A DNA stretch of 64,000 nucleotides from a virus (IMGVR_UViG_3300025736_000018:652-64651); one strand, 5' to 3'. Positions 36,683 to 42,318 are shown, counted from the first letter of the stretch. Program-made: numbers and translations. The notes: generated by a model not told the origin, from the letters alone.

Positions 36683-37063
36683 ATGCAAAAAAAATTAAGA
36701 CTTTATACAGAGACAATTCTTGACAGTTGCCATCAGCTAAGAGGATATGACGGCAAGTGTAGTAATATGCATGGACACTCTTGGAAAATATCAATTTGGA
36801 TTGAAGGTAATGTAGACCAGAGAGATGAAGTTGGAATATTATTCGATTTCGGTAATATAAAACAATTACATGAAAAATATGATCATCAATTTATTAATGA
36901 AATTCCACCATTTGATAAAAAAAATGCAACTGCAGAAAATTTGTGTATACAATTTTATAAAGAATTAGTAAGCGAAAATCCAATGTTACAGTTCGTAGTA
37001 AGAGTATACGAAACTGCAGTTGGGAAAGAGACATATTGTCAATATGGAGATTTTAATGTTTAA
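36683..37063 (+). CDS. queD: 6-carboxy-5,6,7,8-tetrahydropterin synthase QueD
   Basis: CxxxHGH motif CSNMHGHSWKI. Confidence 0.85.
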   Translation: MQKKLRLYTETILDSCHQLRGYDGKCSNMHGHSWKISIWIEGNVDQRDEVGILFDFGNIKQLHEKYDHQFINEIPPFDKKNATAENLCIQFYKELVSENPMLQFVVRVYETAVGKETYCQYGDFNV

Positions 37064-37718
37064 ATATATTGAAATGTTTCATTCAATTCAAGGCGAATCT
37101 CAATCTGTTGGAATGAATGTTGTATTTTTAAGATTAGCAAAATGTAATTTGAAATGCAACTTTTGCGATTCTACTTACAGTTGGAATGAAGGTGCTAATA
37201 TTAGTGTAGATAAAATTGTTGAATATATTAGATTGAAAGCTGCAAACGGTATAGTAATTACTGGCGGAGAGCCTCTTTTACAAAAGGAAGAGATTACTAA
37301 ACTAATTGGAGAGTTACCTGTAGACTTTCATATAGAAATTGAAACTAATGGTACAATTATGCCGGCAGTATTTGACGATTTTATTTATTACAACGTATCT
37401 CCAAAACTAAGCAATTCTGGTGAACCTTATGAAAAGAGAATAAATTTAAATGTACTAGAGACCTACGGTGGTTATTGGGACAATAGTATACTTAAGTTTG
37501 TAGTTGATAAAGAAGAAGATATTGAAGAAATAAAAAGTTTATTAGATGATCTAGAGTATGAAGTTAACAAAAGTCAAATATACTTAATGCCAGAAGGCAT
37601 AACTGCAGAATCTCAACAATTGAAAAACAAACAGGTAATTAAATGGGCGCTAGAAAATGGCTGGAATTATAGTCCAAGAATCCAGGTCTCTATATGGAAC
37701 GATAAAAGAGGAGTATAG
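37056..37718 (+). CDS. queE: 7-carboxy-7-deazaguanine synthase QueE (radical SAM)
   Basis: EMFHSIQGESQSVGMNVVFLRLAKCNLKCNFCDST. Confidence 0.85.
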   Translation: MFKYIEMFHSIQGESQSVGMNVVFLRLAKCNLKCNFCDSTYSWNEGANISVDKIVEYIRLKAANGIVITGGEPLLQKEEITKLIGELPVDFHIEIETNGTIMPAVFDDFIYYNVSPKLSNSGEPYEKRINLNVLETYGGYWDNSILKFVVDKEEDIEEIKSLLDDLEYEVNKSQIYLMPEGITAESQQLKNKQVIKWALENGWNYSPRIQVSIWNDKRGV

Positions 37719-37719
37719 T

Positions 37720-37872
37720 ATGAAGATAAATCATTTTGATGTTAGCATGGCTAAATCAATGTTAAGAGGATTCGGATATGTAGCGCTTATATTTAGCATT
37801 ACAGTTGGAGTTATTATATTAATAGGCTCTGAGTTTTTAGGAATTGTTGAGGAGTTAGTAGATGATAGATAA
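37720..37872 (+). CDS. small membrane protein
   Basis: ATG after GAGGAG; one TM helix. Confidence 0.35.
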   Translation: MKINHFDVSMAKSMLRGFGYVALIFSITVGVIILIGSEFLGIVEELVDDR

Positions 37873-38371
37873 TGTAGTAATTTGAAGAGAGTTAGAACTT
37901 AAATTTTGAAGAGAAGATAAAAGAGCTGTTATGCCGTGTGTAGCTTATGAAGGCACTAGTGCTTGCTTTGATTTAATAGCGATTAGAAATACCGTAATTC
38001 CCGCAGGCGAAAGTGCTATGATACCAAACGGATTAAGAGTATTAATTCCTGAAGGTTGATATATTGAATTTGCAACCAGAAGTGGCCACGGTATCAAATA
38101 TGATTTGAGAGTTCATCCGGGAATTATTGATGCTGGATATAAAGGACCCTTATCTGTAAAAATGTATAATTTGGGGAAAGAAGATATTTCTATTCTCAAA
38201 GGAAAAGCTATTGTACAATGTAAAGTACATAGAGTACCTGGGTTTACATTCACTGAAATTACGGAAGAGGAATTTAATGAAGTGGAAACAATTCGTGGAG
38301 AAAACGGATTTGGAAGCTCAGATGAAATAATTGATAGTGAAGTTATTATAAAAGATAAAAAGGAAAAATAA
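37862..38371 (+). CDS. dut: dUTPase (three in-frame TGA)
   Basis: ATRSGHGIKY and the GxIDxxYxG motif PGIIDAGYKGP. Confidence 0.7.
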
Positions 38372-40010: not shown

Positions 40011-40833
40011 TGATATAAAACTACTTAATAATGATACTGTATTTATGATGACCTGTGGGAAGGTTAAATATCATTTTGAATATGATGTGCCGTTACATAA
40101 ACTTTACAAAGGAGCATTTCATAATGCAAGACAAGATTTTATAAATTTAGTCGCGGGTAAAAATAATTACTACTACGTCACACCATCAGGTCCAGGGATT
40201 GTTTCTGCAACAACATTGTGTGGTTATTATGATATGATAACGCCTAATTGTAAATTAATCGATGAAACTTTTATAATCAAACATAGAGAAAATGCATATA
40301 AACATTCTCCAATTCTTAAAACTGCAAAAAATGTATATTATATTGGTGACATTAGATATTTTACTTTTTTACAAAAAGTTTTTTATGATAAAAATATTAT
40401 TATGATTTTTAATGAAAAATCAGGTATGGGGACTCAAATAGGGCTTTTAAGAAGGTTTGTAAATTATTATAATAAGCCAACATATTTTAAACATTTAAAA
40501 ATACAAGATGACAATAAAATTATAATTCTTTATAAGAGAAATAAAGTAGAATTTCTTAATGTCTTTACAAAAAAAGATAATTTATATATTAATGATGTTG
40601 AGATAAAACCACATACATATATTAATAAATTTTTGAAAAATAATAAAATAGACGTGGCAAAATACATACCACGTTCTAATTCAAGAATATTATTATCAAT
40701 AGTTAGTAAAATAATTAATCCAGTTTTTGGCTGTAACTGGGTAAAGGAAGAAATTAAATTTGACGATAAAATTGATTATTATTTAAACAAATACTTCAAT
40801 AAAAATATTGTTAAATTATTAAAGGAAACATAA
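40000..40833 (+). CDS. hypothetical protein
   Basis: 277-aa ORF. Confidence 0.5.
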   Translation: MNINDIKLLNNDTVFMMTCGKVKYHFEYDVPLHKLYKGAFHNARQDFINLVAGKNNYYYVTPSGPGIVSATTLCGYYDMITPNCKLIDETFIIKHRENAYKHSPILKTAKNVYYIGDIRYFTFLQKVFYDKNIIMIFNEKSGMGTQIGLLRRFVNYYNKPTYFKHLKIQDDNKIIILYKRNKVEFLNVFTKKDNLYINDVEIKPHTYINKFLKNNKIDVAKYIPRSNSRILLSIVSKIINPVFGCNWVKEEIKFDDKIDYYLNKYFNKNIVKLLKET

Positions 40834-41361
40834 ATGAGAATAGCATTATCCGGTGCCCAGAGTGTTGGAAAATCTACAATATTGAAGGCAATGAAAAAAT
40901 TGCCTGAATTTAGTAATTACGAATTTGTAGAAGAAATTGTCAGAAATTTACATAAAAAATATGGAATTCAAATTAATGAACAAGGAAACGGAGACACTCA
41001 GTTGATGATTGCTAACGCTCATTATTTTAACGGATTCAAAAAGAATGTAGTTCTGGATAGGTGTATATTGGATTGTCTTGTTTACACTCACTTATTGGAA
41101 GATAACATTGAATATTGGATTTTTAACTATATACATAATCTATGGGAAAGGGAAATGGAAAAGATTGATTACGTCTTTTACTTTCCACCAGAGTTCAAAA
41201 TAGTTGATGATGGTTTCCGGAGTTTAGATGAAGAGTTTCAACTAAAGACTCATGAAGTTTTTCACAACTATATTGGTCGAAATAATGTAACCAATGTACA
41301 TACAATTATTGGAACGGTAGAGGAAAGAATGAAAAAAATAAAAGATATAATAGGAGTATAG
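40834..41361 (+). CDS. P-loop NTPase/kinase (AAA_28, NadR-kinase-like)
   Basis: Walker A IALSGAQSVGKSTIL. Confidence 0.45.
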   Translation: MRIALSGAQSVGKSTILKAMKKLPEFSNYEFVEEIVRNLHKKYGIQINEQGNGDTQLMIANAHYFNGFKKNVVLDRCILDCLVYTHLLEDNIEYWIFNYIHNLWEREMEKIDYVFYFPPEFKIVDDGFRSLDEEFQLKTHEVFHNYIGRNNVTNVHTIIGTVEERMKKIKDIIGV

Positions 41362-41367
41362 AATTAA

Positions 41368-42318
41368 ATGAGTTTACCCGACGTACAACAAAACACAACT
41401 GGATTTAAAAAGCTTCCAATAGAGAAAGTTGGAGTGAGAGGAATCAAAGTTCCCTTTCATATATTCCAGAAAGGTAATTCAAAAAGCTTCAGTACAATAG
41501 CAACAATTTCAAGCTACTGTAATCTTGTAGAAGATGTTAAAGGGATAAATATGTCTCGCATTAGCAGAGCAATTAATGAAGTGTTGCAGAGAAATAAAGA
41601 TGGATTTACAAATTTAAATGATTTTGTATATGCGCTTCAAGAGGCTCATGGAGCAACTGATATTTATATTAAGGCAAATTTTGAATATTTATATGATACA
41701 TTATCTCCAATTGAAAAGGTATCGTCAATAGAGCCGGTCAATATTACATTTGAGAGTAAACTAAAAGATGATAAATTATTCAACTACATTACAGTTAAAA
41801 CTACTGAGATGTCATTATGTCCTTGTAGCAAAGAAATGTCATTATTAAAAAATAACCTGACAATGACTGAGAGTTTACTTATACAACATGCTCAATTTCC
41901 TCCGGTATTACTTAATAAAATAAACAATGCTGGCTTTGGAGCACATAATCAAAAATCTACAATTGAGGTTACATTTGAATTTATAGAAGGAAGAACAATG
42001 TGAATCGAAGATATAATGGAAATTATTAGAGAAAATGTATCATCTCCTACATGATCAACTCTTAAAAGAGGAGACGAGAAATATGTAACTGAAAGGTCTT
42101 ATATGGGTGGGTATTATGATGAGAATAAGAAATTTGTAGATACTGGCGGTGGTCCAATGTTTGTAGAAGACATTGTTAGAAATATAGCTTTTGAATTAGA
42201 TAAAGAATTAGATAACAGAATATTAGACTATTCTATTATAGTTAACAATCATGAATCTATTCATTCAGACGATATAATGGCTACTGCAATAATGACAGCA
42301 GGGCGAGAATTAAAATAA
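41368..42318 (+). CDS. folE2: GTP cyclohydrolase I type 2 (FolE2/MptA-like; two in-frame TGA)
   Basis: LPDVQ...IEKVGVRGIKVP, MSLCPCSKEMS, C-terminal HESIHSDDIMATA; the 41368 and 42103 ORFs share one frame. Confidence 0.6.

Follow-up and report, generated by a model that had tools for sequence, protein, structure and literature searches.

Gene content of the locus

The window analysed here is the whole of a 64,000-nucleotide stretch from an uncultivated virus (IMGVR_UViG_3300025736_000018:652-64651), which has about 30% G+C and is coding almost entirely on the + strand. Positions 36683-42318 hold nine co-directional genes, abutting or overlapping and all on the + strand, which include enzymes of 7-deazaguanine synthesis. 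It had been proposed from the sequence alone that this block serves 7-deazaguanine modification of phage DNA, and the present analysis supports that view, as a complete gene set for making the base preQ0 from GTP is accompanied by a gene of the DpdA3 family of guanine transglycosylases, from which the chemistry would follow. The genes (lengths in amino acids, aa) are as follows.

36683-37063, + strand: QueD (6-carboxytetrahydropterin synthase), 126 aa; PF01242, E 1.4e-25
37056-37718, + strand: QueE (7-carboxy-7-deazaguanine synthase, radical SAM), 220 aa; Radical_SAM, E 1.6e-13; phrog_2076 'QueE-like', E 7e-58
37720-37872, + strand: small predicted membrane open reading frame (ORF), 50 aa, between QueE and dUTPase; no family match
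37862-38371, + strand: trimeric dUTPase, 169 aa, with three in-frame TGA codons (37883, 37907, 38057); PF00692
38372-39040 (222 aa, ending at TGA 39038) or 38372-39091 (239 aa, ending at TAA with the TGA read through), + strand: QueC (preQ0 synthase); PF06508, E 1.4e-65
39210-40010, + strand: DpdA3-family guanine transglycosylase (putative), 266 aa; phrog_19058, E 5e-60
40000-40833, + strand: DpdC-like protein (YaaA/DUF6884-type N-terminal domain and a C-terminal domain of no known type), 277 aa; candidate preQ0-nitrile enzyme
40834-41361, + strand: DpdA3-associated P-loop kinase (AAA_28 / NadR-RNK-like), 175 aa; AAA_28, E 3e-16
41368-42318, + strand: FolE2 (GTP cyclohydrolase IB), 316 aa, with two in-frame TGA codons (42001-42003, 42052-42054); PF02649

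The DpdA3 gene and the 277-aa ORF overlap by 11 nucleotides, and between the 277-aa ORF and the kinase gene the gap is zero. Given these overlaps and abutting ends, the block has the look of a co-directional operon and not of a chance grouping. QueD, QueE, QueC and a FolE2-type cyclohydrolase were all found, by Pfam, phrog and NCBIfam searches, where the sequence-only reading had placed them. The identity of QueE stood but its start did not, since the best start is 37056 and not 37020, in agreement with the gene calls on identical contigs. The P-loop kinase was likewise confirmed in the block, but it follows the 277-aa ORF and not the 266-aa ORF. The dUTPase and the membrane ORF also lie inside the block. 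Homologs of the membrane ORF occur within the deazaguanine cluster, mostly directly upstream of QueE, in 11 of 80 IMG/VR loci that encode relatives of DpdA3 and whose ORFs were classified. A promoter and terminator scan of 35.8-43.3 kb showed no difference from shuffled sequence, and an Rfam scan of the window returned tRNAs and a transfer-messenger RNA (tmRNA) only, with no preQ1 riboswitch or other regulatory RNA family.

A predicted DpdA3 transglycosylase

The 266-aa protein between QueC and FolE2, in which a motif like that of the tRNA-guanine transglycosylases (TGT) had been noticed, belongs over its full length, by homology, fold and active site, to the DpdA3 subfamily of DNA guanine transglycosylases. 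Its fold is that of TGT and DpdA, the three catalytic aspartates are kept, and exchange activity is predicted for it. It had been regarded as unassigned; it belongs, however, to a subfamily published in 2023 and named for the proteins of the phages immuto and CP220, and carried by phiST as well (PMC10516641). The match to phrog_19058 covers profile positions 1-255 of 258. Over 97% of its length the protein shows 45% identity (E 2e-65) to a product of Flavobacterium phage immuto that is annotated 'DNA guanine transglycosylase, DpdA', and over 98% it shows 43.6% identity (E 5e-54) to gp056 of Campylobacter phage CP220. Its AlphaFold2 model is of high confidence (predicted local distance difference test 94.6, predicted template modelling score 0.91), and the best 50 Foldseek matches in the PDB are all TGTs or the DpdA structure 7ui4 (probability 1.00, query-normalised template modelling score 0.54-0.66). 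The comparison with TGT and DpdA that had been suggested as a check thus came out in favour, and a TGT/DpdA homolog is present in this genome in the form of DpdA3. A sequence search of the PDB with the same protein returned spurious PPR-repeat matches only, and the PADLOC Dpd models and NCBIfam gave no match to it.

In DpdA, the residues Asp95, Phe99, Asp130, Leu236 and Asp256 are experimentally essential. Across 34-50 homologs of the 266-aa protein D52, D83 and D206 never vary, and F56 and L185 hardly or never do; D52-N-S, P82-D83, H183-x-L-G186 and D206-T-S are among the invariant positions. In the profile alignment HLLG...DTSNP of DpdA3 falls on HLLGIA...SIDSTTP of DpdA, and the spacing from D52 to F56 equals that from Asp95 to Phe99. 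Because of this alignment and the identical Asp-to-Phe spacing, D52, F56, D83, L185 and D206 can be mapped, in the order of the sequence, to the five DpdA residues, with D52 and D83 matched by motif and spacing.

QueD, QueE, QueC and FolE2 all lie within 2.6 kb on either side of DpdA3, and DpdA has been described as a signature of DNA modification (PMC10516641). It is very probable that the DNA of this phage carries a 7-deazaguanine installed via DpdA3. The family is large, with 3181 metagenome homologs, and the identical protein was found on contigs of up to 176 kb from several samples. A single-sequence locus search for viral contigs with DpdA3 gave nothing; an alignment-based search succeeded.

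Enzymes for preQ0 synthesis

All four preQ0 enzyme families are present with their catalytic motifs, and by homology FolE2, QueD, QueE and QueC make up a complete GTP-to-preQ0 set. QueD scores 84 bits against TIGR03367, slightly under the cut-off, and has the CxxxHGH motif (CSNMHGH), not the variant LxxxHRHxF of DpdL (PMC10516641). QueE has the cluster motif CNLKCNFC and matches the NCBIfam QueE models at E 1e-33 and below, under their cut-offs. QueC reaches 200 bits with TIGR00364 (cut-off 150) and has the SGGMDS PP-loop and the C-terminal cysteine cluster; it carries no fused glutamine amidotransferase domain.

FolE2, which is complete only when TGA is read as tryptophan, matches PF02649 in two in-frame pieces (profile 1-177 and 208-260) and FolE2 entries of the PDB at E 7e-25, and the motifs CPCSKE, GAHNQKS and ESIH are present. 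FolE2 was found in none of the 80 related loci, 40 of which have FolE, and in 3 of 50,697 cultured-phage records. FolE2 and FolE catalyse the same GTP cyclohydrolase I reaction. Since the reaction is identical, FolE2 is a non-orthologous replacement that adds no new step, and the suggestion that its use marks a variant pathway was not borne out, though the enzyme is rare in phages. It should be noted here that the protein carries two insertions relative to solved FolE2 structures, of about 30 aa after CPCSKEMS (41842-41931) and of about 17 aa before FVED (42094-42144). The first is shared with the homolog on contig L093.

The 277-aa protein and the final base

The product of 40000-40833 had also been proposed for comparison with TGT and DpdA. 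Profile searches with its homologs pointed to a DpdC-like (YaaA/DUF6884) protein, and Foldseek with its model returned nothing from the PDB at E<=0.001. The protein itself has no direct family match in Pfam, phrog, PADLOC or NCBIfam, and none to PF21818 or PF03883 at E<=1. An exhaustive HMMER search of 1.8 billion proteins found only nine cluster representatives of its family; a word-seeded homolog search found nothing, and with the family profile four proteins only. The homolog P0127 (phmmer E 1.6e-8 to the 277-aa protein) reaches 32.4 bits with PF21818 (DUF6884; cut-off 30), and the homolog P0123 reaches 21.6 bits, below that cut-off. PADLOC gave no Dpd-model match to the family and a weak PDC-M57A match on two relatives.

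Members of DUF6884 have a YaaA-related fold with CxxxK and LSAxxG motifs (PMC11701544). A YaaA-type ('cantaloupe') alpha/beta fold was found for the 277-aa protein, and its family keeps without exception C19-x3-K23 (CxxxK; TCGKVK), which is characteristic of DUF6884 and resembles a motif of ArcS. The glycine-rich TPSGPG, with G64 and G66 invariant, may correspond to LSAxxG, with no alignment to the model obtained. An hhalign comparison of the family with E. coli YaaA gave a probability of 0.2 and no sequence-level link. DUF6884 has been given as the domain of DpdC (bioRxiv 10.1101/2025.02.24.639861); in other papers DpdC is assigned to DUF328, the YaaA family. DpdC turns preQ0-DNA into ADG-DNA in vitro (PMC10164549).

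The gene neighbourhoods of the family favour a part in the pathway. The order is DpdA3 - 277-aa homolog - kinase in L089, QueC - 277-aa homolog - DpdA3 - kinase - FolE2 in L093, and QueE - QueC - QueD/FolE fusion - 277-aa homolog - phrog_887 DpdA in L090-L092, so that the family stands beside DpdA or preQ0 genes in three further independent contig lineages with a GC content of 24-49%. With a family hidden Markov model no member was found among the other 80 DpdA3 loci (QueF in 65, DpdN in 50) or in the DpdA3 loci of cultured phages, and tblastn of the 277-aa protein and P0127 against the cultured-phage records gave no match. The 64-kb window yielded no QueF, DpdN or Gat domain. As the family is absent from loci of the QueF/DpdN type and adjoins DpdA and preQ0 genes, the 277-aa protein thus fills the slot of the preQ1-tailoring enzymes of relatives, in clusters without QueF. 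We predict that it converts preQ0 to the amide ADG, by a link to DpdC that is transitive. Its presence shifts the predicted product from dPreQ0 or dG+ towards 7-amido-7-deazaguanine (dADG).

The reading that we favour, at a probability of roughly 0.55, is phage-encoded guanine replacement of the DpdA3 type, in which preQ0 is made, inserted and hydrated to dADG. FolE2, QueD, QueE and QueC would turn GTP into the free base preQ0. DpdA3 would then swap guanine for preQ0 by the double displacement of the TGTs, with D206 as the nucleophile and D52 as the acid/base, and the 277-aa protein would hydrate the nitrile, leaving dADG as the base of the virion. Replacement is probably extensive, because all three measured DpdA3 phages replace all G (CP220 by dADG, phiST by dDG and immuto by formyl-preQ1, fdPreQ1; PMC10516641), and it would protect the DNA from restriction enzymes. 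Taken as a separate question, the final base is tentatively dADG, at a little under an even chance; some other base, G+-like or new, is doubtful, and dPreQ0 is unlikely.

A number of points weigh against dADG made by the 277-aa protein, or against DpdA3 insertion itself. CP220 makes dADG without a detectable member of the 277-aa family, and two of the six contig lineages with that family (L094 and L095) show no deazaguanine genes nearby. The window covers 64 kb, while the genome is about 176 kb long, so that QueF or another tailoring enzyme could lie elsewhere. We know of no biochemical data for any DpdA3. The authors who named the subfamily could not reconstitute it in E. coli (PMC10516641), and proteins with the YaaA fold are known in other roles, among them DNA binding and perhaps the handling of abasic sites (PMC11701544).

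It could be, then, that the pathway ends at preQ0 with dPreQ0 in the virion, the 277-aa protein being a DNA-binding or abasic-site helper or an unrelated protein, and no nitrile hydratase. The canonical QueC, the lack of QueF, DpdN and a Gat domain in the window, the lack of a significant family match for the window protein itself and the two contexts without deazaguanine genes would all fit this, and the DUF6884 member YfjM has been linked to the recognition of DNA lesions (PMC11701544). We consider it improbable, because the gene overlaps that of DpdA3 and abuts that of the kinase, its family adjoins DpdA or preQ0 genes in the three lineages and is missing from the 80 loci in which QueF is common, and the CxxxK motif is invariant.

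The kinase next to DpdA3 and the route of insertion

The kinase matches phrog_2107 'thymidylate kinase' (E 6e-30), and its nearest solved structure is the ribosylnicotinamide kinase domain of NadR. It is homologous to the DpdA3-adjacent kinases of immuto (E 1e-28), CP220 (1e-18) and Campylobacter phage CC_R7 (2e-10). Among the 61 related loci with enough sequence for the count, 52 have a homologous kinase at most 2.5 kb downstream of DpdA3, abutting or overlapping it in 19. The recurrent order is (QueE, FolE)-DpdA3-(DpdN)-kinase-QueF-(QueC, QueD), the core DpdA3-(DpdN)-kinase-QueF being highly conserved in relatives (L009-L088, L001, L002), and a subgroup of seven loci has DpdA3-DpdN-QueF without the kinase. 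In the cultured-phage records all 21 near-full-length kinase matches (>=80% of the query) belong to Campylobacter phages or Flavobacterium immuto phages, and DpdA3 is carried by these same groups. The kinase also has partial matches in Streptomyces phages, where its setting is another one; a 'methyltransferase' beside the kinase homolog of Streptomyces phage NootNoot was considered as a DpdA3 and rejected, as it is not DpdA3-like.

The P-loop kinase is a conserved partner of DpdA3, and the DpdA3 reaction probably needs it; the word 'kinase' is absent from the paper that defines DpdA3 (PMC10516641). The kinase may phosphorylate a modified nucleotide, or it may hydrolyse ATP as DpdB does for bacterial DpdA. 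The sequence-only reading had also taken unrecognised partner proteins as a possible sign of a variant pathway, which holds for the DpdC-like protein and the kinase and not for DpdA3 itself.

The first of these roles belongs to a pre-replicative route. Here DpdA3 would act on a free deoxynucleotide or nucleoside and swap its base (as in dGMP + preQ0 -> dPreQ0-MP + guanine), the kinase would phosphorylate the product, the phage DNA polymerase III would incorporate the triphosphate, and nearby NTP hydrolases would deplete dGTP, so that complete replacement would arise as it does for hydroxymethylcytosine in phage T4. The position of the kinase speaks for it, since in the 52 loci this small-molecule-type (NadR-RNK-like) enzyme is set between DpdA3 and the genes for tailoring, and the stop codon of one gene often overlaps the start codon of the next. 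DpdA3 is moreover no more than a TIM barrel, 266 aa long, where the matched TGT chains have about 355-370 aa and DpdA has 413 aa. Genes of the nucleotide-hydrolase type adjoin DpdA3 (PRA-PH/MazG-like in immuto, HD+AAA_33 in CP220 and dUTPase-like in the window and other loci, directly before DpdA3 in 5 related ones). Recurrent neighbours among the relatives are a class-II glutamine-amidotransferase-like family of 205 aa (18 loci), a dUTPase/dCTP-deaminase-like family (11), a MazG-like family (9) and a phosphoribosyltransferase (7), the last also in keeping with this route. The cluster adjoins the replicative polymerase gene, in the window and in relatives. The replacement of 100% of G in all measured DpdA3 phages, the ADG nucleoside detected in the cytoplasm of CP220-infected cells and the inactivity of DpdA3 alone in E. 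coli (all PMC10516641) are in line with it too, and the last would be explained by a nucleotide-pool route with the kinase.

However, all characterised TGT and DpdA enzymes use a polynucleotide, and the authors who defined DpdA3 favour post-replicative insertion (PMC10516641). Bacterial DpdA needs the ATPase DpdB, so the P-loop protein could equally be an ATPase helper for exchange on DNA, and DpdC acts on DNA (PMC10164549). Among the genes of the window no dGTPase was recognised, the dUTPase has canonical motifs as read from its sequence, and the related kinase of the Streptomyces phages stands beside a methyltransferase that is not DpdA3-like. On balance the pre-replicative route has at best the odds of a dPreQ0 ending, and a joint scheme, in which DpdA3 and the kinase give a G-free genome through the nucleotide pool and the DpdC-like enzyme sets the amide (dADG), is one that we hold to be slightly less likely still. 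A 252-aa protein at 11466-12224 has a nucleoside 2-deoxyribosyltransferase match below threshold (26 bits, cut-off 28.8) and no match in cultured phages or the PDB; that superfamily includes dNMP N-glycosidases, and the protein could bear on the clearing of dG nucleotides.

It is very unlikely that the genes merely boost the queuosine modification of host tRNA or the supply of folate and pterins, with no modification of phage DNA. This was raised for phages with preQ0 genes and no recognised DpdA (PMC6884629), and the many translation and RNA genes of the present phage (tRNAs, tmRNA, RtcB, CCA-adding enzyme) would suit it; but a DpdA3 with an intact active site lies in the middle of the cluster, DpdA is described as a signature of DNA modification (PMC10516641), and no tRNA-type TGT, QueA, QueG or QueH was seen.

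TGA as a tryptophan codon

The standard code splits FolE2 (41368-42318) into 41368-42003 and 42103-42318, a recoding by TGA that the sequence-only reading had missed. The gene as such was confirmed, since the two pieces share one frame and are parted only by the TGAs at 42001 and 42052. The closest homolog (contig L093, 61% identity) has tryptophan at both positions, and solved FolE2 structures have tryptophan or tyrosine at the second. With TGA read as tryptophan the dUTPase covers profile positions 4-128 of 129 of PF00692 (E 4.9e-16); under the standard code its C-terminal 88 aa only remain. In-frame TGA is also needed for the PHP domain of DNA polymerase III alpha, for ThyX, for GroEL and for many genes at 51-63 kb. 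Because of the residues at the FolE2 sites and the in-frame TGAs of so many genes, it is concluded that TGA encodes tryptophan in this phage, and intact FolE2 and dUTPase require this reading. For QueD, QueE, DpdA3, the 277-aa protein and the kinase the choice of code makes no difference. That the cluster is decaying, with FolE2 (ended at residue 211 by the standard code) and the dUTPase (bereft of its N-terminal half) as pseudogenes of a dead pathway, is scarcely credible, as the interruptions are TGA only, always in frame and common to DNA polymerase III alpha, GroEL, ThyX and many others, both FolE2 sites are tryptophan in the closest homolog, gene callers chose the read-through models on identical contigs from other samples, and the phage was assembled from many samples in contigs of up to 176 kb.

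The use of TGA for tryptophan is patchy, with examples at 22624-23277, 37862-38371, 41368-42318, 42672-46481, 51813-56275 and 60006-63074. Tryptophan is encoded almost by TGA alone at 51813-53321 (11 TGA, 1 TGG) and 54944-56275 (7 TGA, 0 TGG), and by TGG alone at 6086-7252 and 19631-20479 (each 0 TGA, 9 TGG). In 20676-21686, 24143-24505, 34252-34479, 46468-47406 and QueC a TGA stands 2-17 codons ahead of a TAA or TAG, as if TGA could also end translation, with the second stop as a backup. No tRNA(UCA) suppressor was found in the window or about 5.7 kb upstream. DNA polymerase III alpha gains about 190 N-terminal residues (42672-43238) if five TGAs are tryptophan, with the PHP HxH motif (HNHSTFS) upstream of the standard-code start at 43239. 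The polymerase is at most 27% identical to that of any cultured phage.

Other features of the phage

A tRNA array has nine members in the window (1606-12667) and eight more just upstream (locus L100, 333-4571), among them an amber-suppressor-like tRNA with anticodon CUA (4378-4452) and tRNA-Trp(CCA); no clear in-frame read-through of TAG was seen. A tmRNA lies at 9083-9456 (Rfam RF00023, 121 bits; tag peptide ANNLQLAA by ARAGORN). Genes for RNA repair and the upkeep of translation are a PTH2-like protein at 3731-4357 (a weak match below the Pfam cut-off), an RNA ligase at 6086-7252 (PHA02142 OB-fold + RNA_ligase), RtcB at 24493-25695 and a 495-aa ORF at 32764-34251 whose sequence, taken alone, resembles that of a CCA-adding enzyme with an HD domain. 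An NAD salvage set at 16754-20479 comprises an isochorismatase/nicotinamidase-like protein (16754-17401), nicotinate phosphoribosyltransferase (18102-19286) and NAD synthase (19631-20479), and may counter host defences that deplete NAD.

The TGA-rich block at 51813-63074 encodes GT1/GT4-type glycosyltransferases (51813-53321 and 54944-56275) and a ClpP-like head maturation protease (56276-56881). Judged from their sequences, 53332-54981 is GroEL-like, 60006-61163 resembles a DegT-type sugar aminotransferase and 62097-63074 an NAD-dependent sugar epimerase. The sole close cultured-phage match of the window is the product of 20676-21686 (phrog_24834, E 3e-143), which shares 64% identity with a Bacteroides phage Versailles protein annotated 'radical SAM domain-containing protein'; it hints weakly at gut Bacteroidota.

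Comparison with known systems

Genomes with 7-deazaguanine give phages resistance to most restriction enzymes and are of interest for phage therapy and synthetic biology. DpdA3 is the best-performing insertion enzyme, with 100% replacement, and has never been reconstituted; the window and its 80 relatives point to the adjacent P-loop kinase as a missing partner. The 277-aa protein is the first candidate for a virus-encoded enzyme from preQ0 to ADG. A part of the DNA-modification pathway, FolE2 and the dUTPase, needs TGA as tryptophan, so that in this uncultivated phage, of about 176 kb, genome modification and the recoding of a stop codon are linked.

The phage immuto resembles the window in its DpdA3, 45% identical over the full length, in the homologous kinase just downstream, and in having QueD, QueE and QueC in the same block beside replication genes. 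It differs in having FolE, QueF, the formyltransferase DpdN, a MazG-like hydrolase and a phosphoribosyltransferase, whereas the window has FolE2, no QueF or DpdN was seen in it, and the DpdC-like gene takes the position of DpdN. With DpdN so replaced and neither QueF nor DpdN in sight, an amide or nitrile base is predicted and not formyl-preQ1.

In CP220 (Firehammervirus) the DpdA3 gp056 is followed directly by the homologous P-loop kinase gp057, and dADG, the product predicted for the window, replaces 100% of G. There, however, the DpdA3-kinase pair lies among structural genes with an HD+AAA_33 protein before it, the preQ0 genes are elsewhere, and no member of the 277-aa family was detected in this or any other cultured phage. 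The CP220 pathway is reported to end at 7-carboxy-7-deazaguanine, CDG (PMC10516641).

The bacterial DpdA-DpdB-DpdC system of Salmonella Montevideo (PMC10164549) offers a precedent for the proposed chemistry, in that preQ0 is inserted by a protein of the TGT fold and then converted to ADG by one of the YaaA/DUF328/DUF6884 type, and the catalytic Asp/Phe/Leu set of DpdA is kept in DpdA3. On the other hand the window has neither DpdB (a ParB-like ATPase) nor the restriction genes dpdD-K, with no PADLOC match for the two proteins tested, and the neighbours are genes of phage replication and metabolism and not those of a Dpd island. DpdA3 is about 150 aa shorter than DpdA, and the DpdC-like protein is too diverged for direct detection by sequence. 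About 0.01% of G is modified in the bacterial system, against complete replacement in DpdA3 phages.

Phages with DpdA1 or DpdA2, such as Enterobacteria phage 9g (dG+) and Escherichia phage CAjan (dPreQ0), likewise combine FolE, QueD, QueE and QueC with a DpdA that protects the DNA from restriction (PMC6884629). Their DpdA is of another subfamily and modification is partial, at 0.1-30% of G (PMC10516641); they have FolE and not FolE2, and a search at E<=1e-5 found in them no kinase of the family seen here. Viral dADG has been ascribed to an unidentified protein or to oxidation (PMC6884629), and no phage DpdC is reported in the literature searched. The DpdA3-type system is already known and the 277-aa DpdC-like enzyme previously undescribed. 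With DpdA3 joined to a DpdC-like gene, no QueF or DpdN seen in the window, FolE2 in place of FolE and a partial dependence on TGA as tryptophan, the locus is unlike every described example.

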